Part shown: piece after piece, positions 2,522-63,469 of the stretch | How the letters are laid out: each line of letters begins with the position of its first letter | Position numbering within the stretch: the first letter of the stretch is position 1 | Assembly: GCA_030699125.1 (NCBI GenBank) | Contig: JAUYKM010000009.1 | Span: forward strand, 6,358 to 70,357 | Source of the DNA: Candidatus Daviesbacteria bacterium | GTDB taxonomy: Bacteria; Patescibacteriota; Microgenomatia; Daviesbacterales; UBA10151 | Direction of reading: 5' to 3' | DNA: 64,000 bases | The notes under the pieces: model-generated | What the model saw: the letters and a program-made list of their open reading frames with translations, nothing else | Database searches by the model: none | Told to the model about the DNA's origin: nothing | Made by a program: the position numbers and the translations under genes

Positions 2522-2864
2522 CAATAAAATTATGAAACAATTTTATTCCCATCTTATTGAAATAGAATCATTAATTGTAGAGCTTGATAAATTGGATTTG
2601 GCTGATGAACAAAAAAAGCATTTAGGTGAATTAATAGATTCCAGTTTGCATCATACTATTTTAGATGCGGTTCTTTCGGAATTATCTGAAGATGATAAAA
2701 GAATATTCATAAAACATTTAGAGGAAGGTGATCATCAAAAAATCTGGCAATTTTTAAATGAAAAAATAGAAAATATTGAAGATAAAATAAAGAAAGCTGG
2801 GGAGAGTCTAAAAGAGGAATTGCATAAAGATCTAAAAAGAGCAAAGAAAGAGAAAAATTCATGA
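2514..2864 (+). CDS. Small charged coiled-coil hypothetical protein
   Basis: 116 aa and rich in K/E. Its start overlaps the previous stop and its stop overlaps the secF start, which is operon-like coupling. Confidence 0.4.
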   Translation: MHSNKIMKQFYSHLIEIESLIVELDKLDLADEQKKHLGELIDSSLHHTILDAVLSELSEDDKRIFIKHLEEGDHQKIWQFLNEKIENIEDKIKKAGESLKEELHKDLKRAKKEKNS

Positions 2865-3745
2865 AATTAATGCGATTTAAACTATGGTATTTTATATTCT
2901 CATTACTGATAATTTTGCCCGGTCTTTATTTTTTAATAACGTCCGGTTTAAGGCTTGGTATTGATTTTACTGGTGGGTCACTTCTTGAATATAAATTTGG
3001 TGAATCAGTTTCAACAAACCAAATAAAAGATGAATTTTCAAAGGGAGGTGTTGAGATTGGACAAATCTCCCAAACCTCAGAGAATTATTTTATTATCCGG
3101 ACTAAACCGGTTGAACAGGAAAATTTGAATAATTTGAAAAAGGAACTCAATGACAAATTTGGCAGTTTGGAAATCAGGAGAGAAGAAAATATTGGTCCAA
3201 CCATTGGTCAAGAAATCACCAATAAGGCAATGATTGCCATTGGGTTGGCCTCACTGGCCATAGTTTTATACATCTCCTTTACCTTTAGAAAAGTACCCAA
3301 ACCCCAATCATCGTATAGATTTGGGATTGCTGCAGTTTTGGCGCTTTTGCATGATATTTTAATTGTGGTGGGAGTTTTTGCCATTTTAGGCAAATTTTTA
3401 TCTGTGGAGGTAGATATTCTTTTTGTGACAGCACTTTTGACCATTATCGGATTTTCAGTTCATGATACTATCGTGGTATTTGACAGAATTAGGGAAAATC
3501 TTTTAAAAAATGTGGGGAAAAAATTTATTGATGTTGCCGATGTATCCATAATACAGACGTTAACCAGATCCTTAAATACCTCGCTTACAGTGATTTTTGT
3601 ATTATTTCCCATGCTTCTTTTTGGAGGTGAATCTTTAAGGTGGTTTACATTTGCCCTTTTGGTGGGAATTATCTCCGGAACTTATTCCTCTATCTTTAAT
3701 GCGACAGCATTACTGGTCTGGTGGGAGGAACGCTTAGGTCATTAA
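2861..3745 (+). CDS. secF: Protein translocase subunit SecF
   Basis: 294 aa. N-terminal TM, GIDFTGGSLLEY motif and a C-terminal SecDF TM bundle. Confidence 0.9.
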   Translation: MKLMRFKLWYFIFSLLIILPGLYFLITSGLRLGIDFTGGSLLEYKFGESVSTNQIKDEFSKGGVEIGQISQTSENYFIIRTKPVEQENLNNLKKELNDKFGSLEIRREENIGPTIGQEITNKAMIAIGLASLAIVLYISFTFRKVPKPQSSYRFGIAAVLALLHDILIVVGVFAILGKFLSVEVDILFVTALLTIIGFSVHDTIVVFDRIRENLLKNVGKKFIDVADVSIIQTLTRSLNTSLTVIFVLFPMLLFGGESLRWFTFALLVGIISGTYSSIFNATALLVWWEERLGH

Positions 3746-14327: not shown

Positions 14328-14642
14328 GTGATAAATCCAGAAATAGCTAATAAGTGGATTTTGAGAACAAGAAAAGGATTTGATGTGACTATAGACTCTA
14401 GGGATAGTATGGAAGGCCTATCTTGGGATATATTACGAAAATGGCAAAAAGAATTTCAAGAGGATTTTTGCAAAGATTGCATAAATTTCGACTTAGATAG
14501 ACAATATTTTATTAACAAAGACCACCCAAATAATCTACAGGATTGTATTTCTCATTGGACAGATATTGTTGGGGTATGTTGGAATTTTAAACACCGGGTA
14601 ACCGGGGAAAGCATTGATCAACTATTACGGAGTTTTAAATAA
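14328..14642 (+). CDS. Hypothetical protein (104 aa, Cys/His/Trp-rich)
   Basis: ORF followed by a GC hairpin terminator. Confidence 0.35.
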   Translation: MINPEIANKWILRTRKGFDVTIDSRDSMEGLSWDILRKWQKEFQEDFCKDCINFDLDRQYFINKDHPNNLQDCISHWTDIVGVCWNFKHRVTGESIDQLLRSFK

Positions 14643-14668
14643 TCTAAATCTATCAACCCACAAAAAAA

Positions 14669-14690
14669 CTCGCGCGAGGCGAGTTTTCTT
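14669..14690 (+). terminator. Intrinsic terminator built from a GC-rich CGAGGCGAG-family palindrome (CTCGCGCGAGGCGAG followed by TTTTCTT)
   Basis: Stem CTCGC/GCGAG, then a T-run. The same motif is inserted inside two CDSs elsewhere in the window. Confidence 0.5.
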
Positions 14691-29196: not shown

Positions 29197-30165
29197 ATGA
29201 CTAAAGTTGTTGTTACCAGGAAAATTCCGGGGAATGGAGTAAAAATGCTTCAGGATGCAGGGTATGATGTGGTAGTTTCACCTCATGATAGACCACTGGA
29301 GCGGCAAGAACTTTTAAATTTTATTCAAGGAGCAGATGGGGTACTATCTCAGCTGACGGATAAAGTTGATGAGGAGTTTATTAATGCCTGCGGCCCAAAT
29401 TTAAAAATTGTGGCCAATTTTGCAGTGGGTTTTGATAATTTAGACACCCCTACCCTAACGTCGCACAATATTGTTGCTACCAATACCCCGGATGTGTTAA
29501 CTGAGGCTGTAGCTGAACATACTTTTGCTTTAATTTTGGCAATCGTGAGGAGAATACCTGAAGCTGATAAATTATCCCGTTCCGGTTCACCTCCAGCATT
29601 TGGCCCGGAAGTGCTATTGGGGACGGAACTTAAGGGAAAGGATTTAGGTGTATTGGGACTGGGCAGAATTGGTTCCAGGGTGGCAGAGCTGGGATATGCC
29701 ATCGGTATGAATGTTATTTATTTTGATAATAATAAACAAAACCAGGAATTGGAGCAGAAAGTTGGTGCGAAGGCAAGAGAATCTGCGGAAGCAGTTCTAA
29801 AAGAAGCAGATGTAGTTTCTATCCATGTACCCCTTTTGGATTCTACCAGACACCTGATTAATGCTGAGAAGCTGCAAATGATGAAACCGACAGCTTATTT
29901 AATAAATACCTCCCGTGGACCGGTGGTGGATGAGGCAGCTTTAGTGGAAGCCCTAAAATCTGGAACTCTTAAGGGAGCAGCCTTGGATGTATATGAAAAA
30001 GAACCTCAGCATGCCCCGGGATTGGATGCATTAAACAACGTAGTACTAACCCCTCATATTGCCTCAGCCACAAATGAGGCCCGCTCCGCCATGGGAGAGC
30101 TGGCAGCCAAAAATATTATAGCCGTCCTTTCTGGACAGCCCCCCTTAACCCCTGTTAAAGTGTAG
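29197..30165 (+). CDS. D-isomer-specific 2-hydroxyacid dehydrogenase (glyoxylate/hydroxypyruvate reductase-like)
   Basis: NAD-binding GLGRIGSRVA and a catalytic R..E..H arrangement (TPHIASAT). Confidence 0.8.
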   Translation: MTKVVVTRKIPGNGVKMLQDAGYDVVVSPHDRPLERQELLNFIQGADGVLSQLTDKVDEEFINACGPNLKIVANFAVGFDNLDTPTLTSHNIVATNTPDVLTEAVAEHTFALILAIVRRIPEADKLSRSGSPPAFGPEVLLGTELKGKDLGVLGLGRIGSRVAELGYAIGMNVIYFDNNKQNQELEQKVGAKARESAEAVLKEADVVSIHVPLLDSTRHLINAEKLQMMKPTAYLINTSRGPVVDEAALVEALKSGTLKGAALDVYEKEPQHAPGLDALNNVVLTPHIASATNEARSAMGELAAKNIIAVLSGQPPLTPVKV

Positions 30166-31153: not shown

Positions 31154-33721
31154 TCAACTTTTTCTAAATAGATTAAAGATAGGTGTGACAACGAGCATAC
31201 GCATAATAAATAGTAAGAATATACCTACTCCCAAAAGTAGTCCCCAATCCATAAGAGTTAATGGATGGACTTTAAAAAGTTGCTGTAAAGTTACCCCGGC
31301 GAAGGAGATTGGCAGATACAAAATTAAAAGTTGTAAGATCAGGGAACCTGTTATTGCCAAGACTAGAAATGGATTGGAGAAAAAGGGTAGTTTGTACTCT
31401 GAGCGGATGGCTACAATCCTTAACATTTCATAAAAAACAATGGCGGTAAAAACCATAGTTTGTTCATAAATGGGATCTTTTTGATAGATAAAGAAGATCA
31501 AAAGAATCGCAATGGTCAAAAGAACACTAACCGCCATTAATGGTCCTAAAAATCTGCCTCCGGCAATTTCTTCCCTGAATTTTTGCGGGGGAAGATCCAT
31601 AATATTTTTTCTGGGTGGATCAACCCCCAAAGCTATGGCTGGTAAACCATCAGTGACTAAATTAATCCATAAAAGGTGAATTGGCAAAAGCGGTAGATGT
31701 CCTCCTCCTAAAATAACTGCCAAAGATATGACCAAAACTTCCATGATATTTGAAGAGAGTAAATAATTAACAAATTTTCTGATGTTATCAAAAATGGCCC
31801 TACCCTCTTTGATAGCCTCAACAATTGTCGAGAAATGATCATCCAGTAAGACCATATCAGAGGCTTCTTTGGCCACATCTGTCCCGGTAATACCCATGGC
31901 TACCCCAATATCAGCAGCCTTTAGGGCTGGAGCATCATTAACCCCATCTCCTGTCATGGCCACCTGGTGCCCGTGTGCTTTCAAAGCTTTAATAATTCTG
32001 ATTTTGTGTTCCGGGTTAACTCTGGCATAAATTGCAATTTGCTCCACCTGCTCTTTTAATGCTTCATCGGATAATTTATCCAAGTCTTGACCGGTGATAT
32101 TTTTACCCTCAATGCCAATTTGGCTGGCAATAGCCTGCGCAGTTAAGAGATGATCACCTGTGATCATAACCACCCTGATTTGCGCCTGTTTCTGACAAAC
32201 CTCGATTGCCTGTTTCACCCCTTCTCTTGGTGGATCAATCATCCCGACAAGCCCTAAGAATGTGAGGTTTTCTTCTTTTTCGGAAGAACCATAAGCAATA
32301 GCCAATACTCTTAAAGCTTTCCTGGCCATTTCATCATTTGCTTTAAGAATCTTCATCTTTTGCTCCTCAGTCAAATTTGAACACTTTCCCAAAATAACTT
32401 CAGTGGCCCCCTTACTAATTAATATTTGCCCTTCTTTGTTTTTTACTATTACTGACATCATCTTTCTGTCAGAAGAAAAAGGGATCTCAGAAATTCTTTG
32501 ATAAGTTTTTAAAATTGTTTCTTGGTTTAAACCCGAATCTACGGCTGCCTGAATTAAGGCAGCCTCTGTTGAATCACCAATTATTTGGCCCGCTTCGCCG
32601 CGAGGCGAGCCCCCATTTATTCTGGCATTAGAGGCAAGTAAACCAAAGGTTAAGATTTTTTCTTTATTCTCCCCGAAGATCTCTGTTACCTTCATTACCC
32701 CTTCAGTTAAAGTTCCTGTTTTATCAACGCAAATTACATCTGTTGATCCCAGTGTTTCTGCAGCTGCCAAATGTCTAATCAGAGATTTTTGTTTAAGTAG
32801 TCTCCTGGTTCCTAAGGCTAGGGAAATAGTCACCACCACCGGTAATCCTTCCGGAATAGCTGCTACAGCTAAAGCTATAGCCGAAATTAAAGAATCGAGT
32901 ACATTTTGTCCAAACCCAGTCTGACTGGGTCCAAACAAAAATTGTTCAATTCCAATTAAAGCTGCAATAACAAGTACAATCCTGCCAATTAATTTGCCCA
33001 GATTGTTAAGTTTAAGCTGTAAAGGAGTGGGTGGTTCTATCTCTTGGGAAACCAAATGGGCAATTTTACCAATCTCAGTGCTCATACCTGTGGATATGAC
33101 AATGCCGATACCTCGACCCGCAGCAATGTTGGTACCTGAAAAAAGCATATTTTTCCGCTCAGCCAAAATTACATCTTCAGCTAAAGTGTCAGGATCTTTA
33201 GTCACCGGAGTCGACTCCCCGGTGAGTGAGGCTTCATTAGTTTCCAGACTAAAGGCTTGAATAATTCTAATATCAGCAGGAATTTTTTGTCCTTCCTCTA
33301 AAACAATCAAATCGCCGGGTACTAAATTGGAACTGGCAACCTGCTGGATCACTCCGTCTCTGTAAATACTGGCTTGAACCGTCACCAGTTTTTTAAGCTG
33401 TTTGATAGTTTTTTCAACCCTGTATTCCTGGATAAAACCGACAATGCCGTTTAAAATAACAATTGCCAAAATCAAGGCTGCATCTAAAGTTTCGCCCAAA
33501 ATAAGAGATACTGAAGAGGCTATTAGCAGAATAATAATAAGAAAGCTTCTAAATTGAGAAAAGAAAATCTGAAAAGCACTTTTACCTTTTTCCTCTTGTA
33601 AAATATTTAGACCATATTTTGTAAGTCTTTTTTCTGCCTCTTGAGCTGTTAAGCCTTTTTGTTGATCAGTTTGTAGTTCTTGTATGGTCTGCTCAACTGA
33701 TTTCAGATATGCCTTTTCCAC
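31154..33721 (-). CDS. P2-type cation-transporting ATPase (Ca2+/Mg2+-type)
   Basis: TGES, ICVDKTGTLT, PEGLP (type II hallmark) and MTGDGVNDAPALK. Contains a 29-bp GC-rich in-frame insertion encoding GGSPRGEAGQ. Confidence 0.85.
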   Translation of the reverse strand: MEKAYLKSVEQTIQELQTDQQKGLTAQEAEKRLTKYGLNILQEEKGKSAFQIFFSQFRSFLIIILLIASSVSLILGETLDAALILAIVILNGIVGFIQEYRVEKTIKQLKKLVTVQASIYRDGVIQQVASSNLVPGDLIVLEEGQKIPADIRIIQAFSLETNEASLTGESTPVTKDPDTLAEDVILAERKNMLFSGTNIAAGRGIGIVISTGMSTEIGKIAHLVSQEIEPPTPLQLKLNNLGKLIGRIVLVIAALIGIEQFLFGPSQTGFGQNVLDSLISAIALAVAAIPEGLPVVVTISLALGTRRLLKQKSLIRHLAAAETLGSTDVICVDKTGTLTEGVMKVTEIFGENKEKILTFGLLASNARINGGSPRGEAGQIIGDSTEAALIQAAVDSGLNQETILKTYQRISEIPFSSDRKMMSVIVKNKEGQILISKGATEVILGKCSNLTEEQKMKILKANDEMARKALRVLAIAYGSSEKEENLTFLGLVGMIDPPREGVKQAIEVCQKQAQIRVVMITGDHLLTAQAIASQIGIEGKNITGQDLDKLSDEALKEQVEQIAIYARVNPEHKIRIIKALKAHGHQVAMTGDGVNDAPALKAADIGVAMGITGTDVAKEASDMVLLDDHFSTIVEAIKEGRAIFDNIRKFVNYLLSSNIMEVLVISLAVILGGGHLPLLPIHLLWINLVTDGLPAIALGVDPPRKNIMDLPPQKFREEIAGGRFLGPLMAVSVLLTIAILLIFFIYQKDPIYEQTMVFTAIVFYEMLRIVAIRSEYKLPFFSNPFLVLAITGSLILQLLILYLPISFAGVTLQQLFKVHPLTLMDWGLLLGVGIFLLFIMRMLVVTPIFNLFRKS
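32587..32615 (+). repeat. GC-rich mini-element (CGAGGCGAG family) inserted in frame in the P-type ATPase
   Basis: GGCCCGCTTCGCCGCGAGGCGAGCCCCC within AT-rich coding sequence. The same core appears at 14669-14683 and 52861-52890. Confidence 0.6.
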
Positions 33722-46532: not shown

Positions 46533-49199
46533 ATGAAAAAAACAAAAACCAGACAAAACAAACCAATCTTACAAATTATGGCCATGCCAAAAAGGTTTGG
46601 CAGGAAAAAAACTAATGGTGAACATAAAACTAATGGTCACGGGGTAGACGGCAGAGGATTTGAAGACAGATTCATTCCCAGGTATAAAAAAATGCCCCCA
46701 GTGCCCAAAGATTTGCCTGTTCCTACTTTTTCCGAATCATCCAATAAAATTTTACAGGAGAGATATCTTCTTAAAGGCGGGGATCTTAAGGTGGTAGAGA
46801 GTATCTCTGATCGGTTTTGGCATATTGCCTATGATATTGCCTCGGGAGATTTTGATTTTGGCTATAGTGAGAGTGAAGTTTATAAAAATGCTTTGGAATT
46901 TTATACCATGATGGTCAGGCAACAGTTCCTGCCCAATTCCCCCACCATTATGAATGCAGGTAAACAAAATGGTCTGCAGTATTCTGCCTGTTTTGTACTT
47001 CCGGTGGGAGATTCTTTACCGGAAATTTTCGATTCAGTAAAGTACGCAGCATTAATCCACCAGACAGGCGGTGGAACCGGATTTGCCTTTTCCCGCCTTA
47101 GACCTGCTGGCTCAGTAGTCCGCACCACCGGCGGAGTGGCTTCCGGGCCGGTATCTTTTTTACGGGTCTTTAATGCTGCCACTGAATCTATCAAACAGGG
47201 CGGTACCAGGAGAGGTGCTAATATGGGGATTTTAAGAATTGATCATCCTGATATTCTGGAATTTATCAGATGCAAAGCAGAGTTGGATGATATGAATAGG
47301 CCGGTTTTTGAAAAAATTGCTCCGCTTTTGCCTGATGATAAGGCCAAAAAATATTTTAAAACCATGCTTTTAGATAAGCAGATCTCCAACTTTAATATCT
47401 CCTGTGCAGTTACAGAAAAATTTATGGAGGCTTTGGAGGCAGGCGAAAATTATGACTTGATCGATCCTCACTCAGGCGAGGTGGTGGGGCAATTAAATGC
47501 CAAAGAGGTTTTTGATGAAATAGTGGAGAGAGCCTGGTCTACCGGTGATCCGGGATTAATTTTTATAGACAGAATTAATGATTCTCCGGCCAATCCGGTG
47601 CCCAAATTAGAAACTATTGAGAGTACCAATCCTTGTGGCGAGCAGCCTTTGGCTCCCTGGGATGCCTGTAATTTGGGTTCCGTTAATTTAGGTAAGTTTG
47701 TCCGCCAGCTGGCGGATGGCAGCTCTGATGTGGACTGGGAGGGATTGAAAGAGGTAACTCGCAAAGCAGTTCACTTTTTAGATAATGTAGTTCAGACCAA
47801 CCCTTATACTTTAAAACAAATTTATGATGAAGTTCACCAAAATAGGAGGATTGGTTTGGGGGTGATGGGTTGGGCAGATATGCTTTTCAAGCTGAAAATT
47901 CCCTATAATTCTGATCAGGCTTTGGAGTTGGCAGAAAAGGTGATGAGTTTTATCAACAATGAGGGTCACAAAATGTCAGAGGAGCTTTCGAAAGAAAAAG
48001 GATCTTTCCCTAGTTGGGCCAACTCAATTTATGCAGATTCTAAATCTTCTGCCTTTAAAAATAGAGCTTCTGTGTATGCTTATCAGGGGGGAAAACCGAT
48101 TAGAAATTCCACTGTCACCACCATTGCTCCTACCGGTACTATCTCCATTATCGGAGATTGTTCATCCGGAATTGAGCCTGTTTTTGCTCTTGCCTATATT
48201 CATAGGGCAAAATCAGTGGGGGATCAGTACAGGGTTTTGACCATTGCCAATGAGACTTTTGAGGAGATTGCCAAAGAAAAGGGTTTTTATTCTCCAGATT
48301 TGGCCCAAAAAGTTTTAGAACACGGTTCTGTAACAGGGTTATCGGAGGTGCCGGATGAGTGGCAAAAAGTTTTTATTACTGCACCGGAGATTGACCCGAT
48401 CACACATGTTAAAATGCAAGCCATCTTTCAAAAACATACAGATAATGGAGTCTCTAAAACTATTAATCTGCCTAACTCTTCTACGGTTGATGACGTGAGA
48501 ACTGCTTATTTGATGTCTTATCAGACCGGCTGTAATGGTATCACCATCTATAGGGATGGTTCCAAAAGTACCCAAGTTTTAAATGTCTCATCTACTTTGG
48601 AAAAGAAACAGACGGAGGAGTCAGCAGAAGCGGCACCAATTGCCCAAAGGCCCATGATACTTCGGGGCAGAACTTATAAAGTGGCAACACCTGTGGGTGA
48701 GGCGTATATTACCATTAACAGAGATGAAAACGAACAGCCCTTTGAAGTCTTTGTGACTGTGGGTAAGGGCGGGATGCATACTATGGCAGATGCGGAAGCC
48801 ATGGGAAGACTGGTTTCTCTTTCTTTAAGGCTAGGTAGAAATGGCGGATCAACTGATCCTCGGGAGGTGGCTCAAAAGATTGCTTCTCAGCTGAAAGGAA
48901 TTGGCGGAGCTTCATCTGTAGGATTTGGGAAAAATAGGGTGATGAGTTTGGCTGATGCTATTGCTAAGGTGTTGGCTGAGGATTTGGCAGTTTCTGCTGA
49001 TGTAGAAGTGGTGGAACAAGTGCCCTTAAATCTGACTAATGGAGAAGCCAAAGAGGTTAATTCTGAGTCTGTTTCTGATCCGGCTACCAATTACCAACTA
49101 GCTACTAATGTAGATTTATGTCCGGAGTGCGGTTCAGCCTCATTTGTGATGGAAGAAGGCTGTAAAAAATGCCACTCCTGCGGATATTCCATGTGTTAG
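46533..49199 (+). CDS. nrdJ: Class II (adenosylcobalamin-dependent) ribonucleoside-triphosphate/diphosphate reductase
   Basis: TNPCGEQPL active-site motif and a C-terminal Cys-rich zinc ribbon. The track ORF starts at 46410 inside nrdR, so the ATG at 46533 is preferred. Confidence 0.85.
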   Translation: MKKTKTRQNKPILQIMAMPKRFGRKKTNGEHKTNGHGVDGRGFEDRFIPRYKKMPPVPKDLPVPTFSESSNKILQERYLLKGGDLKVVESISDRFWHIAYDIASGDFDFGYSESEVYKNALEFYTMMVRQQFLPNSPTIMNAGKQNGLQYSACFVLPVGDSLPEIFDSVKYAALIHQTGGGTGFAFSRLRPAGSVVRTTGGVASGPVSFLRVFNAATESIKQGGTRRGANMGILRIDHPDILEFIRCKAELDDMNRPVFEKIAPLLPDDKAKKYFKTMLLDKQISNFNISCAVTEKFMEALEAGENYDLIDPHSGEVVGQLNAKEVFDEIVERAWSTGDPGLIFIDRINDSPANPVPKLETIESTNPCGEQPLAPWDACNLGSVNLGKFVRQLADGSSDVDWEGLKEVTRKAVHFLDNVVQTNPYTLKQIYDEVHQNRRIGLGVMGWADMLFKLKIPYNSDQALELAEKVMSFINNEGHKMSEELSKEKGSFPSWANSIYADSKSSAFKNRASVYAYQGGKPIRNSTVTTIAPTGTISIIGDCSSGIEPVFALAYIHRAKSVGDQYRVLTIANETFEEIAKEKGFYSPDLAQKVLEHGSVTGLSEVPDEWQKVFITAPEIDPITHVKMQAIFQKHTDNGVSKTINLPNSSTVDDVRTAYLMSYQTGCNGITIYRDGSKSTQVLNVSSTLEKKQTEESAEAAPIAQRPMILRGRTYKVATPVGEAYITINRDENEQPFEVFVTVGKGGMHTMADAEAMGRLVSLSLRLGRNGGSTDPREVAQKIASQLKGIGGASSVGFGKNRVMSLADAIAKVLAEDLAVSADVEVVEQVPLNLTNGEAKEVNSESVSDPATNYQLATNVDLCPECGSASFVMEEGCKKCHSCGYSMC

Positions 49200-49618: not shown

Positions 49619-49737
49619 AAATACCTGCTGATTTATATGTTAAAATCTTCTCGTGGATTCTAAAAAAGGATTAATGATTATATCTATTGATGAAGAGAAG
49701 AGGAAGATAACGGTTGTTTGAGCCTTAAGAAAACCAA

Positions 49738-50508
49738 ATATCCGCAGGTGTCAATACAGATACACCCCAAGGGTGTACATACAATATAAACTTTACTCCT
49801 CCTCCAACAACTGATGTTTTATTAGTTCTAACTTTTGGGCGTATTCCACACGTTCAAGAACAAATTCCTTATAATCTTCGGGGGATTTAAAAAAATTTAG
49901 GATTTCTTCTTTAGCGCAAAAGCCATCTTTTACCAGTCCAACATATTCCGGATATGAAGACCAACGATAATCTTTTAAATCCTTCACTAGAAGTGATGCA
50001 ATCGGGTTTAAGTGAATATAACGTGAGACATGAATTAACTGTTCATCAGATTCAATTAAAACAGCTTTGAATTCCCCCTGTAATAAAGGCCCAACTCTTC
50101 TGTACTTAACATTGTAGTATTTGGTATAGCTATTGCTAAGTTTACTGATAAATTCAGTAATTCCGCCATCTTTAAGTTGTCTAATAAGAAGATGGAAATG
50201 GTTTGGCATTAGACAATAGCAGATAATGTCCACGATTTTTTTGTTTGAATCGGGTTTAATAATAGAATTTGGTGAGAATCTGGAGAATCTTGGCTTGGGT
50301 CCTAATAATTGGTAATAGGTGATCGTCTTAATAAATCTTGAATAATCCCAATTTTTTTCAAATATTCTTCTTTTCTCTACACCTCGGTTATAAATATGGT
50401 AAAAATGACCGTTAACAAATGGAAAAATTCTGGAAGGCATTTGAACCTATCGTACTCTCAATATCCGCAGGTGTCAATACAAAAACACCCCAAGGGTGTA
50501 CATACAAT
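49738..50508 (-). mobile_element. IS200/IS605-like element: a Y1 transposase flanked by 48-bp near-identical direct subterminal repeats carrying a GTACACCC-AA-GGGTGTAC hairpin
   Basis: Repeats at 49738-49785 and 50461-50508 differ at 3 positions. Same-strand hairpins at both ends fit the IS200/IS605 LE/RE architecture. Confidence 0.6.
49793..50440 (-). CDS. Y1 HUH tyrosine transposase (IS200/IS605 TnpA or RAYT-like)
   Basis: HUH motif NHFHLLI and catalytic Tyr in YIHLNP. Paralog of the 34562..35236 gene. Confidence 0.7.
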   Translation of the reverse strand: MPSRIFPFVNGHFYHIYNRGVEKRRIFEKNWDYSRFIKTITYYQLLGPKPRFSRFSPNSIIKPDSNKKIVDIICYCLMPNHFHLLIRQLKDGGITEFISKLSNSYTKYYNVKYRRVGPLLQGEFKAVLIESDEQLIHVSRYIHLNPIASLLVKDLKDYRWSSYPEYVGLVKDGFCAKEEILNFFKSPEDYKEFVLERVEYAQKLELIKHQLLEEE

Positions 50509-51108: not shown

Positions 51109-53577
51109 ATGACTGATTTTATTAAACCATCATTATCTTCACAATCGCCGATTAAGCTCAAACCAACCATGGCCGTGGGGCCTTTAAGGGATACAGTAAT
51201 TTTTCCTGGCAATTCCGTACCAATTATTTCCGGCAGACCTAAGTCCAAAGCTGCCCTGGATGCTTCTTGGAATTCTGATAAATTGATTGTTTTTGTCACT
51301 CAAAAAAATTCCAAAATTGAGGATCCCAGCGAAAAAGATTTATATAAAGTAGGCACAGTCTGTTTGATCAGGAGAGTGGTAAAAAATCCGGAGGGTGAAT
51401 ATACCCTTCAGGCAGAAGGATTATCCCGAGTTTATTTAAAATCCTTTACCCAGACCCAAGCCTATCTTGAGGCAGAAATTGAGGAGATCCCCGAGCTTTA
51501 CGAAAGATCAGAACAAACAGAGGCCCAGGTTCGAACAGTCAAAGAACAAGTTAAAAGATATCTGGAGCTTGGCGGCAATCCCTTCTTTGATCAGAGTGCT
51601 TTTACCAACTGGTCCATCTTTACCTACACAGATGATCCCAACCAGCTGGTTAACTCAGTTGCGCAAGTAATTGATTTTAAAACCATAGATAAGCAGCAGA
51701 TTTTGGAAATGGTATCTGCGCAGGAGAGACTACAAAGATTATCCGAGCTTTTAGCCAAAGAAATTAGAGTGATGGAGATTTCCCAAAAAATTTCTTCTCA
51801 AACTAACGAGAGAGTTTCCCGTATGACCAAAGAGGCTATTTTGAGAGAACAGATGAAAAGCATTGAAGAAGAGTTAGGGGAAGGATCAGAAAATCAGGAG
51901 ATTCACGAATTTGAGTCAAAAATTAAAAAGAGCGGCATGCCAAAAGAGGTGGCGGAACGGGCCAAGAAAGAGCTATCCAGATTAGCCAAGATGTCATCTT
52001 ATAATCCTGAGGCAGGCTACATTAGAAATTATCTGGAATGGTTGACTGATTTAGTTTGGAAAATGGGGAAAAAGGCCAAAATTAATCTTAAAATTGCTGA
52101 AAATATCTTAGATGAAGACCATTATGGATTAAAAAAAGTTAAGGAAAGGATTCTGGAGTATCTGGCTGTTCATAAACTGGCAGGCAAAATGAGAGGACCA
52201 ATCCTTTGTTTTGTGGGACCCCCAGGAACAGGGAAAACATCCATTGGTAAATCCATTGCCAGAGCCTTGGGAAGGAAGTTTGTCAAAGTTTCTTTGGGAG
52301 GCATTAGGGATGAGGCGGAAATCCGCGGCCATAGGAGAACTTATGTGGGATCCATGCCAGGCAGAATTATTCAGGGAATAAAACAGGCAGGGGCAGTTAA
52401 TCCGGTTTTTATGCTGGATGAGATTGACAAATTAGGTTTGGATTATCGGGGTGATCCATCAGCCGCATTACTCGAAGCATTGGATCCGGAGCAAAACGAG
52501 GGTTTCTCTGATCACTACCTGGAAGTGCCTTTTGATCTGTCTAACGCCATGTTTATTACCACTGCCAATATTTTAGACACCATCCCTCCAGCTCTAAGAG
52601 ATAGACTTGAGGTAATCAGATATCCGGGTTATACAGAAGACGAGAAATTCCATATTGCTAAAAAGTTTTTAATTCCCAAACAGATTGACAATCATGGATT
52701 AAAAACTAACCAGATTGAGTTTAGCGACGAAGCGATATATTCTGTAATTAGAGAATATACTAGGGAGGCAGGGGTGAGAAATCTGGAAAGAGAGCTTTCT
52801 GCGGTGATGAGAAAAGTGGCCAGAAAAATAGCTGAAGGTAATGGAGAGGCCCGCCTGCCCGCTTCGCCGGAGCTTCAGCGAGGCGAGCCGGACGGGCAGG
52901 TGAAAAAGTTTAATCCGGATGATATTCATAAATTCCTAGGTCCTGTTAAATTCTTACCACAGCTGGCTGAGATTGAAGATACAGTGGGTATGACTACTGG
53001 TTTATCTGTGACAGAAGCAGGGGGAGAGATTTTATTTATTGAGGTGACTCTGATGCCAGGAAAAGGTATCTTGCTTTTAACCGGACAATTAGGTGAGGTT
53101 ATGAAAGAGTCAGGACAGGCTGCTATGTCGTATGTCAGAGCTCACTGGAGAGAGTTGGGATTGTCTGAGAGATTTTTCCATAAGGTAGATGTTCATGTGC
53201 ATGTACCTGAGGGAGCCATCCCCAAAGACGGCCCATCAGCTGGTATTGCTTTAACTACAGCCATTGTTTCTGCTTTCAGTAGAATTCCGGTTCATAAAGA
53301 AGTGGCTATGACCGGGGAAGTGACTTTGCGCGGCAGAGTTTTGGAAATAGGCGGATTTAAAGAGAAAGTTTTGGCTGCTCACAGAGCCGGGGTAAGGGTT
53401 ATCATTGCACCTTCAGATAACCAGAAGGATCTGGAAGATATTCCTGACTTTATACAAAAAGATCTAAGATTTGTTTTTGTTAAACACATGGATGATGTTT
53501 TAAAAGTAGCCTTAATTCATTCTCCCAAGCCAGTCCAGCATAAAACAGTCCCCATCACTCCGGCATACCTGGCCTAA
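51109..53577 (+). CDS. lon: ATP-dependent Lon protease
   Basis: N-terminal LON domain, AAA+ GPPGTGKTS and protease PKDGPSAG with catalytic Ser. Contains a 52-bp GC-rich in-frame insertion. Confidence 0.9.
52849..52900 (+). repeat. GC-rich palindromic mini-element (CGAGGCGAG family, with outer CCTGCCCG/CGGGCAGG arms) inserted in frame in lon
   Basis: GCCCGCCTGCCCGCTTCGCCGGAGCTTCAGCGAGGCGAGCCGGACGGGCAGG encodes [17 protein letters not shown]. Confidence 0.6.
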
Positions 53578-53640
53578 AGCCGCTCTTGACTAAGTGAGGG
53601 AGGGTATTGTAAATTCTAATGAGCTGCCGCCAATTTTTTC

Positions 53641-56031: not shown

Positions 56032-56047
56032 AGCCTATTTCAAAACT

Positions 56048-56119
56048 GTCATTCCCGCGTATGCGGGAATCCAATTAACAGATTTTATTAAATGGATCCC
56101 TGCCTTCGCAGGGATGACA
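56048..56119 (+). mobile_element. Cargo-less MITE-like element: two family-B hairpins in inverted orientation (GTCATTCCCGCGTATGCGGGAATCCAATTAA ... GGATCCCTGCCTTCGCAGGGATGAC)
   Basis: Same terminal inverted repeats as those flanking the GIY-YIG gene at 63108-63463. Confidence 0.55.
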
Positions 56120-56172
56120 AAAGAGGTTTTGAAATGACTCCTAGATAATGGAGTGATATATTACATGAAATA

Positions 56173-63107: not shown

Positions 63108-63463
63108 ATTAGATTATGTCATTCCTGCGAATGCAGGAATCCAATTAACAGATGTATTATTATGTCTATATTTTGGCAAGTGGAATAAATGGCACTTTGT
63201 ATATAGGTGTTACAGATAATTTAGTCAGAAGGGTTTGGGAACATAAACATGATTTGGTAGAAGGATTTACCAAAAAGTACGATATACATGATCTTGTATA
63301 TTATGGGCAACACCAAGACATTAATGAGGCCATTTTAAGAGAAAAACAAATGAAGAAGTGGAAAAGATATTGGAAAATAAAACTGATTAATAAGATGAAT
63401 CCAAAATGGAAAGATTTATATATTTCTATTGTTTAATTGGATCCCCGCCTACGCGGGGATGAC
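63108..63463 (+). mobile_element. 356-bp element with terminal inverted repeats carrying a GIY-YIG nuclease gene as cargo
   Basis: Left end GTCATTCCTGCGAATGCAGGAATCCAATTAA. Right end TTAATTGGATCCCCGCCTACGCGGGGATGAC. Each end is itself a hairpin. A cargo-less copy lies at 56048-56119. Confidence 0.55.
63152..63436 (+). CDS. GIY-YIG nuclease family protein (YhbQ/UPF0213-like)
   Basis: YYVYILASGINGTLYIGVTDNLVRRVWEHK is a GIY-YIG core. 94 aa. Confidence 0.75.
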   Translation: MYYYVYILASGINGTLYIGVTDNLVRRVWEHKHDLVEGFTKKYDIHDLVYYGQHQDINEAILREKQMKKWKRYWKIKLINKMNPKWKDLYISIV

Positions 63464-63469
63464 AGAAAT

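Follow-up and report, generated by a model that had tools for sequence, protein, structure and literature searches.

Introduction

Short GC-rich palindromes that invade AT-rich genomes, coding regions included, are familiar from fungal mitochondria in the form of GC clusters, double-hairpin elements and byp elements. The mitochondrial byp elements are reportedly GC-rich hairpin inserts in coding genes, as set out by Lang and colleagues in 2014, while Elhai and colleagues are said to have described (Genome Res, 2008) hairpin units of 21-27 nt in heterocystous cyanobacteria, SDR1-8, which were proposed to be the smallest mobile elements. Here we analyse a GC-rich nested palindrome that lies in frame within the gene for Lon protease (endopeptidase La), in a 64,000-nt stretch of Candidatus Daviesbacteria contig JAUYKM010000009.1 (this whole stretch is hereafter the window). 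The Lon insert most probably consists of two nested units of a dispersed, non-autonomous family of ultra-small GC-rich palindromic repeats, carried as passenger DNA.

Bacterial precedents come from two bodies of work. Repetitive extragenic palindromic (REP) sequences, and the REPINs that accompany REP-associated tyrosine transposases (RAYTs), have a literature of their own (PMC3733652, PMC3116915), in which Di Nocera et al. describe intragenic REPs and, for Xanthomonas recB, REPs that differ from one another but lie at roughly one site (PMC3733652). Rickettsia palindromic elements (RPEs; Ogata et al. 2000) lie in frame within unrelated housekeeping genes and, as summarised in PMC10969869, encode tolerated surface peptides. 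A literature search with the arm sequences of the family described here returned only chance matches to primers, and the publications retrieved did not link bacteria of the candidate phyla radiation (CPR) to palindromic or REP-like intragenic repeats. At the Rfam gathering score only two tRNAs were found in the window, and the segment 52750-53000 had no Rfam match at E<=1. Hence no prior description of the family was found in either the literature or Rfam.

Results

A 51-nt insert between the AAA+ and protease modules of Lon

The host gene, the insertion and its component units are arranged as follows.

51109..53577, + strand: gene for Lon protease (endopeptidase La), 822 aa, intact, with the open reading frame (ORF) open throughout
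52850..52900 (52849-52899 in codon phase), + strand: the whole Lon insertion, 51 nt, A581-Q597, as delimited by the ortholog alignment
52850..52857, + strand: left part of the outer 21-nt unit, CCCGCCTG; the outer unit also occurs alone in locus L037
52858..52887, + strand: inner 30-nt unit, CCCGCTTCGCC-GGAGCTTCA-GCGAGGCGAG, extra relative to locus L001 and recurring in many other genomes
52888..52900, + strand: right part of the outer 21-nt unit, CCGGACGGGCAGG, from the allele comparison

The product of this ORF is 100% identical to the NCBI 'Candidatus Daviesbacteria' endopeptidase La. It has the Pfam domains LON_substr_bdg, AAA, Lon_lid and Lon_C, and its catalytic residues are intact, with the S710 and K753 columns invariant in the ortholog alignment. 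The first-pass annotation of this DNA had described a GC-rich nested palindrome of 52 bp, with outer 8-bp inverted arms, that adds 18 residues between the AAA+ module and the protease domain and leaves the frame open. Most of this description was borne out. The sequence of 52849-52900, GCCCGCCTGCCCGCTTCGCCGGAGCTTCAGCGAGGCGAGCCGGACGGGCAGG, exactly matches the segment quoted there; the outer arms, CCTGCCCG at 52854-52861 and CGGGCAGG at 52893-52900, complement each other; the 822-aa ORF is uninterrupted; and the insert occupies residues 581-597, between the Pfam matches to Lon_lid (528-578) and Lon_C (603-803). Only the size required correction, as the in-frame insertion comprises 51 nt and 17 residues, the additional base being a G whose placement is ambiguous at both junctions. 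When aligned with the solved Lon structures 3m6a and 6v11, the insert falls in a gap at a short loop. An AlphaFold model of moderate overall quality (mean pLDDT of 63) has a helix at residues 557-576, a coil at 580-597 with pLDDT below 50, then a strand at 599-601.

The insert is distinguished from its surroundings by composition. The 50 nt of 52850-52899 are 78% GC, compared with 38.1% over the whole window, and the insert is one of only three stretches in the 64 kb that reach at least 70% GC over 40 nt. GC content at the three codon positions is 0.94/0.59/0.82 in the insert, against 0.51/0.36/0.38 in the rest of lon. The first-pass annotation had proposed folding the segment as RNA; a stable fold is predicted, at -32.7 kcal/mol (z=-2.0), and the minus-strand DNA folds at -17.8 kcal/mol (z=-2.4); the z-scores are modest because any sequence equally rich in GC folds well.

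Empty, half-filled and filled Lon alleles

An alignment of the 120 best Lon homologs, at 77-100% identity, was used to determine whether the insert is an ordinary feature of the protein. The first-pass annotation had named an equivalent linker, universal among Lon orthologs, as what would refute an insertion; such a linker is absent from 118 of the 119 orthologs (77-86% identity), in which GNGE directly joins VKKF-like residues, and the refutation clearly fails. The remaining sequence, P0002, is the closest relative (86-87% identical), and has only seven extra residues, ARLPDGQ, which correspond to the outer third of the insert, where the Lon of the window has 17.

The same series of alleles is evident in the DNA. 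The allele of locus L247 is empty (GGC GAG|GTT AAG), as is that of L248. The allele of L001, from an independent Sequence Read Archive (SRA) assembly, consists of the outer 21 nt only, GAGG[CCCGCCTGCCGGACGGGCAGG]TAAAA, and that of the window is the same 21 nt interrupted after CCCGCCTG by the 30 nt CCCGCTTCGCCGGAGCTTCAGCGAGGCGAG. The composition of 21 and 30 nt therefore accounts for the 51 nt, or 17 codons, of the Lon insert. No target duplication is present at the Lon junctions, which have an ambiguity of only 1-2 nt; the boundary of the inner unit is likewise ambiguous by the 2 nt CC. Across the whole gene, the DNA of the window and L001 alleles is 77% identical (42% at third positions), whereas the shared outer unit is identical at 21 of 21 positions (P about 0.005).

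The region that follows the lid helix itself differs by 1-4 residues among Lon orthologs, and the insert might on that basis be considered an ordinary lineage-specific linker indel, or else an assembly or chimera artefact of a metagenome-assembled genome (MAG). However, the outer unit also occupies this site in the independent SRA assembly, the frame is preserved, and an identical 30-nt sequence is found in unrelated genes of many independently assembled genomes, long-read chromosomes included. This explanation was rejected on the combined evidence of the orthologs, the L001 allele and the dispersed copies, and we regard it as extremely improbable.

The spacer between lon and the H+-pyrophosphatase gene (53578-53640 in the window) is itself variable. 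The window has nothing there, but the spacer is occupied by a HicA/HicB toxin-antitoxin pair in L001 (3353-3834) and is followed in L248 by a GIY-YIG ORF (2855-3024) in place of the window's pyrophosphatase gene.

A second unit in a P-type ATPase gene

The Lon insert and the GC island at 32587-32615 have GCCCGCTTCGCCG and GCGAGGCGAGCC in common by k-mer sharing, and this island contains a second family member.

31154..33721, - strand: gene for a PMCA-type P-type Ca-ATPase, 855 aa, which contains the second family member
32589..32609, + strand: second family member, the 21-nt unit CCCGCTTCGCCGCGAGGCGAG, whose minus-strand reading is (G)SPRGEAG

This unit, which adds seven residues, is present in 4 of 50 ATPase orthologs and absent from the other 46, among them a sister sequence that is 88% identical. 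Its insertion site is the same to the nucleotide in all four carriers, TTGG^[unit]^TCTCC in the orientation of the element, and the comparison of filled and empty alleles again reveals no target duplication and an ambiguity of just 1-2 nt. The four carriers are scattered, non-sister lineages on a neighbour-joining tree. Such a pattern calls for repeated gain at a single site, numerous precise losses, or exchange of alleles. Within the unit, four of the six fourfold-degenerate third positions are the same in all four lineages, against 13% (33/254) elsewhere in the gene, and the GC content of third positions is 0.71 inside it and 0.37 outside. The nucleotide conservation of the ATPase and Lon units means that their age is far below that of their host lineages, or else that they are under constraint as DNA.

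To take a census of the window, a covariance model was built from 54 distinct 32-nt copies found in other genomes. Only the Lon insert (52858-52889; 57 bits, E=1e-14) and the ATPase unit (32589-32611; 37 bits, E=8e-9) scored above noise. The first-pass claim that Lon is the third essential gene invaded by such elements could not be reproduced, because the window has only these two family members. The 9-mer CGAGGCGAG does occur three times in the window, with 0.05 occurrences expected. One of these, at 14675, lies in the hairpin AAAAAACTCGCGCGAGGCGAGTTTTCTT at 14660-14690, which was rejected as a member since the family model does not recognise it; this hairpin is intergenic, resembles a bidirectional terminator and follows the ORF at 14328..14642. 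The GC island at 47101-47157 was also rejected, being a conserved native FSRLRPAGSVVRTTGGVASGPVSF motif of class II ribonucleotide reductase. A short sequence at 30076-30092, GAGGCCCGCTCCGCC, inside the ORF at 29197..30165, is similar to the Lon insert at its left edge (GAGGCCCGCCTGCC / CCCGCTTCGCC).

A dispersed family of 21-, 27- and 30-nt units

Copies in other genomes were collected through two exact scans. The first, for CCCGCTTCGCC-N(0-12)-GCGAGGCGAGCC in one genome per species, identified at least 119 loci; the second, for the same pattern minus its last CC in metagenome contigs, identified at least 120. The family counts that follow rest on the loci listed from both scans, and the taxon names are depositors' labels, taken unchecked. 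Most of the listed matches are from the CPR, in Davies-, Levy-, Gottesman-, Woese-, Roizman-, Curtiss-, Moran-, Falkow-, Kuenen-, Giovannoni-, Nealson-, Yanofsky-, Wildermuth-, Jorgensen-, Buchanan-, Vogel- and Berkelbacteria, and in Saccharibacteria. Outside the CPR, there are matches in Nitrospira, Planctomycetota (Pirellulales, Phycisphaerales, Sedimentisphaerales), Elusimicrobia, Ignavibacteria, Bacteroidota (Bacteroidia), Omnitrophota, Thermodesulfobacteriota, one Woesearchaeota contig, and about 20 MAGs labelled Gammaproteobacteria. Several genomes have 2-4 of the sampled loci each, and copies are found in long-read chromosomes too. Genomes above 65% GC gave few matches, which are of odd length and probably due to chance. 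Phages do not appear to be common carriers, with a single match in 2.9 million viral contigs. Hence the units are dispersed in many genomes and phyla, and the first-pass view of the Lon insert as a member of a repeat family holds, with dispersed copies that keep the frame of numerous housekeeping genes elsewhere.

The consensus unit is CCCGCTTCGCC-[0, 6 or 9 nt loop]-GCGAGGCGAG. Its arms, CGCTTCGC and GCGAGGCG, pair as an 8-bp stem with one G-T pair, and the loop is absent, CGCGAA-like or nnAGCTyCA, which gives units of 21, 27 or 30 nt. These three lengths account for 105 of 121 copies from species genomes, and 100 of 124 from metagenomes. The Lon outer unit is a related variant, CCCGCCTGCC..GGCAGG. 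The composite plan seen in Lon, CCGCCTG[inner unit]CCGG..GGCAGG, occurs in eight loci; L001 and L037 have the outer unit by itself. A search of the loci with a looser model added a few diverged copies and one self-nested copy. In L033 a 27-nt unit sits in the loop of another unit. Tandem head-to-tail arrays of 30-nt units are seen as well.

Many copies in the metagenome sample, an unbiased one, are within CCTGCCTGCCGG^CAGGCAGG palindromes or GTCATTCCCG^CGAAAGCGGGAAT hairpins, and the flanking base is G at -1 for 63% of copies, and C or T at +1 for 83%. The apex of a palindrome is not preferred in general, as flanking stems of at least 5 bp are found at 13% of copies and 13.5% of random sites, although specific hairpin families nevertheless recur as hosts. 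All three comparisons of empty and filled alleles in Lon and the ATPase lack a target-site duplication, and the block boundaries are clean, without partial copies, across 50 ATPase and 120 Lon orthologs. The units are therefore gained or precisely lost as discrete blocks, and their landing sites include protein-coding genes, small hairpin repeats of other kinds and existing copies of the family.

Among the metagenome loci, a 32-nt sub-family with the loop TC(T/G)CGGCTTTA recurs in L192, L195 and L187. Three copies share one 9-kb contig and the copies are nested among ..GGCAAGGCGGG.. repeats, which points to locally amplified variants. Three other copies (L056, L070, L110) have flanks that resemble tRNA T-loops, and insertion into tRNA genes was considered; ARAGORN finds no interrupted tRNA there, with the element in or out, and these copies are in spacers that adjoin tRNA genes.

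Units within coding sequences

Long ORFs contain about 55-75% of copies. ORFs of at least 120 codons contain 90 of 121 copies, compared with 86% of random positions in the same loci, and in the metagenome sample 47 of 74 units with a length that is a multiple of three are in ORFs. In low-GC loci, 47 of 62 multiple-of-three copies are coding, against 4 of 11 copies whose length is not such a multiple (Fisher p=0.014). Copies of 31 and 33 nt are without exception non-coding. Of the six frames of the consensus 30-nt unit, five are free of stop codons, and in the sixth the TCA that closes the loop gives a TGA; TCA is present in none of 16 coding copies read in this sixth frame, compared with 47% of non-coding copies. 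All six frames are used, though not uniformly (p=2e-5), with PASP..RGE and SPR..GEA favoured. The first-pass annotation had proposed checking codon-position GC and whether the element avoids stop codons in all frames, and had suggested selection for translatability. The multiple-of-three lengths, the five open frames and the frame bias bear out translatability as a pattern, but one that survivorship after insertion could produce by itself, without selection acting on the element.

The hosts were identified for the 20 longest host ORFs, a choice by length that biases them toward large proteins. They comprise seven class I aminoacyl-tRNA synthetases (IleRS/LeuRS/ValRS-type), ThrRS, SecA, GyrB, FtsK, DnaG, PNPase, two UvrD-type helicases, a MiaB-MiaA fusion, a heavy-metal P-type ATPase, a VirD4-like ATPase, a sensor kinase and a glycosyltransferase. 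About half of these inserts are between Pfam domain matches, and some are inside domains. In L155 (2287-5241) the DnaG primase has a 30-nt unit downstream of Toprim, and an intein with a LAGLIDADG domain near the zinc finger, such that one essential gene contains two kinds of selfish insert.

The resemblance to byp elements, whose hallmark is the insertion of GC-rich hairpins into coding genes where the genome is AT-rich, raises the question of whether the insert is missing from the mature protein, either through ribosomal bypass (as at mitochondrial byp elements or T4 gene 60) or through removal at the RNA or protein level. Yet copies within ORFs nearly always have lengths divisible by three and no stop codon, whereas those of 31 and 33 nt are confined to non-coding DNA; the TGA-prone frame is used only by copies without the TGA; frame usage is biased toward benign peptides; and the 51 nt have no features of an intein or intron. 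Translation of the insert as part of the protein is consequently the more probable, and bypass or removal is very improbable.

A second alternative is that the hairpin is selected by the host, whether as a ribosome-pausing mRNA structure at a domain boundary, as a binding site for an RNase or other protein, or as a structural signal in the DNA. Its nucleotide conservation, which is far above the synonymous background, its stable predicted fold, its position exactly at a domain boundary in Lon and the conservation of its arms across phyla are all as this would predict. Against it, sense and antisense copies relative to the host gene number 45:45, in all six frames and in unrelated genes; some are inside domains, and others are nested in other repeats or in non-coding DNA; 118 of 119 Lon and 46 of 50 ATPase orthologs function without the insert; and the loop lacks covariation, with no Rfam match even at the permissive threshold given above. 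A host-selected function is unlikely because both orientations, all frames and unrelated hosts are used, and because the insert is absent from nearly all orthologs.

Proposed mobility of the units

Two candidate genes for mobilisation are present in the window.

49793..50440, - strand: IS200-like Y1 transposase ORF, 215 aa, Pfam Y1_Tnp, E=2e-7
63152..63436 (region 63114-63467): GIY-YIG nuclease ORF, 94 aa, flanked by inverted 35-nt repeats

Several observations weigh against the view that the Lon insert represents mobile passenger DNA. No mobilising enzyme was identified by this search: the Y1_Tnp ORF is bracketed by 69-nt direct repeats (84% identical; 49717-49785 and 50440-50508) that are unrelated to the Lon element, tblastn found its homologs in only 2 of about 120 element-bearing loci (L001 and L012), and GIY-YIG homologs were also found in only two such loci (L052 and L043). 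The orientation of units relative to GC skew, at 28:40, is not significantly biased (p=0.18), which is weak for a mechanism that acts on single-stranded DNA of the lagging strand. To our knowledge, every substrate with demonstrated transposition is larger than a single 21-nt hairpin. The copy number here is low, at 2 per 64 kb. The high nucleotide conservation may instead reflect a selected function of the hairpin. Covariation in the mini-stem of the loop (columns 12-19 and 13-18) is no better than in shuffles, and the arms do not vary because the search pattern fixed them. Finally, the Lon alleles do not discriminate between two gains in succession and a single composite insertion whose inner unit was then precisely lost in L001.

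The shortage of enzyme associations also bears on a further explanation, in which replication template switching or microhomology-mediated gene conversion copies the units from other loci of the genome with no dedicated enzyme, and ordinary horizontal transfer of the genes in which they reside seeds them among phyla. The junction ambiguity of 1-2 nt fits microhomology (with G^CC or G^TC at the Lon and ATPase sites, together with the flank preferences), the head-to-tail arrays and the insertions into similar GC hairpins fit slippage, and concerted evolution among copies would explain their nucleotide conservation. It is hard to obtain, from microhomology of 1-2 nt alone, one 21-nt block at a single nucleotide position in four diverged ATPase lineages and identical arms across phyla, and the ATPase and Lon orthologs compared show clean block boundaries and no partial copies. 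We consider such copying a serious alternative, albeit the less likely one.

For units that were instead mobilised as passenger DNA, the activity may tentatively be sought in a single-strand hairpin 'peel-and-paste' reaction of the IS200/IS605/RAYT (HUH) type, or in another structure-specific nuclease. Such chemistry would be the likeliest, since these systems combine precise excision with insertion free of duplications, but we give this particular step a low probability.

The surroundings of the two candidate genes merit description in their own right. The 69-nt repeats around the Y1_Tnp ORF contain small hairpins of their own, and the homolog in L001 is syntenic, upstream of cobA-lon. Each of the 35-nt repeats at the GIY-YIG ORF holds the hairpin GTCATTCC[CT]GCGnATGC[GA]GGAATCC, and both repeats recur at 56046-56122 of the window as an inverted doublet without an ORF; judged by sequence, this pair looks like a small mobile cassette and its putative miniature derivative. 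Elsewhere, Lon-type units are inserted inside members of the GTCATTCC hairpin family (for example in L035, L102, L112, L156, L173 and L211). In L052 (4330-4700), an Elusimicrobia MAG, an 82-aa GIY-YIG ORF is inserted at a tRNA gene whose 5' part is duplicated, and the duplicated fragment holds a 30-nt Lon-family unit in its D-loop region.

Discussion

The alleles of Lon and the ATPase, and the dispersal of their units through other genomes, suggest how the passenger DNA may have come to reside in an essential protease. The units would be selfish, non-autonomous DNA, copied at the level of DNA by an activity that acts in trans, rather than a feature encoded by the host for its own use. They would persist in essential genes only where their length keeps the frame, the frame is free of stops, and the site is a permissive surface loop, with the tolerated frame giving a hydrophilic peptide rich in Pro, Ser, Gly, Glu and Arg. 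The predicted outcome in Lon is a disordered loop of 17 residues, which would join the AAA+ lid to the protease domain, with no expected effect on function.

A bolder proposal is that the units form a cross-phylum class of 'nano-transposon', the smallest autonomous-looking mobile DNA, which homes to the same permissive sites, excises precisely, and is driven by a widely shared hairpin-specific activity (perhaps a nuclease of the HUH or GIY-YIG class, or an enzyme of host replication or repair), thereby acting as an important, overlooked source of the lineage-specific insertions in CPR housekeeping proteins. We offer this as speculation that could well prove wrong. If the units are indeed passenger DNA, then part of the insertions in the housekeeping proteins of CPR bacteria (Patescibacteria) would represent invasion by tiny hairpin repeats, and not the adaptive evolution of domains. 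The series of empty, half-filled and filled alleles, together with the occurrence of the family in several phyla, would provide a tractable system for studying how 21 nt of DNA are copied between sites and lineages. Such inserts would also mark permissive loop positions in essential enzymes, and have practical consequences, as they distort marker-gene alignments and phylogenies, and GC-rich hairpins can break assemblies.

This family shares with REPs the form of a short, imperfect palindrome, REPs being 20-40 nt in length and the units here 21, 27 or 30 nt. The shared use of one site is a further parallel, in that the different REPs of recB resemble the same-site pattern of the ATPase unit. 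However, the GTAG/CGTC end tag of REPs is absent from the consensus CCCGCTTCGCC...GCGAGGCGAG, complements included, and GACG is present only in the outer variant of the Lon and L001 alleles, not in other outer copies. REPs are predominantly extragenic, whereas this family is for the most part in ORFs; REP families are usually specific to a species or genus, whereas the arms here are identical across many phyla, at low copy number. REPINs are inverted doublets and the repeats flank the RAYT gene, whereas the units here form head-to-tail arrays and nestings, and do not flank the local Y1 gene. Hence the family is REP-like in behaviour and outside the GTAG/CGTC superfamilies, because the tag is absent, the copies are mostly intragenic, and the local Y1 transposase gene is unflanked.

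Other short palindromes of coding DNA differ in scale or in host. [quoted passage not shown] The MITEs and PATEs (palindrome-associated transposable elements) derived from IS200/IS605 are closer, as they share non-autonomy and hairpins, insert without duplication and excise precisely, but are typically 100-400 bp with two distinct ends, and no parent insertion sequence with the ends of these units was found. For transposition of the IS200/IS605 type, which is marked by insertion without duplication, precise excision, hairpin ends and a strand bias relative to replication, the observations point both ways: duplication is absent and blocks are cleanly gained or lost, there is only a single hairpin, and orientation against GC skew is 28:40 (p=0.18). 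The fungal mitochondrial elements are organellar, and as byp elements are skipped by the ribosome, these have no need of a frame, whereas the units here keep both the frame and its openness.

Two further systems offer analogies. Cyanobacterial SDRs share the size and hairpin form of these units and are likewise nested in themselves and in other short repeats, as the present units are in L033, in the composites and in two other hairpin families. SDRs belong to one cyanobacterial subgroup and are not described as mainly in-frame inserts of essential proteins, while no titled record in the present family is cyanobacterial; the likeness is one of analogy and not membership, the two being set apart by description. 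The RPEs share in-frame insertion into unrelated protein-coding genes, which here include those for Lon, the ATPase, synthetases, SecA and GyrB. Compared by description, RPEs are about 100-150 bp and confined to Rickettsia, with their conserved peptide encoded in a single frame, whereas the units here are 21-30 nt, use six frames and extend across many phyla. Hence, by analogy, the logic of these inserts would fit that of Rickettsia RPEs, executed at the size of cyanobacterial SDRs and REPs.

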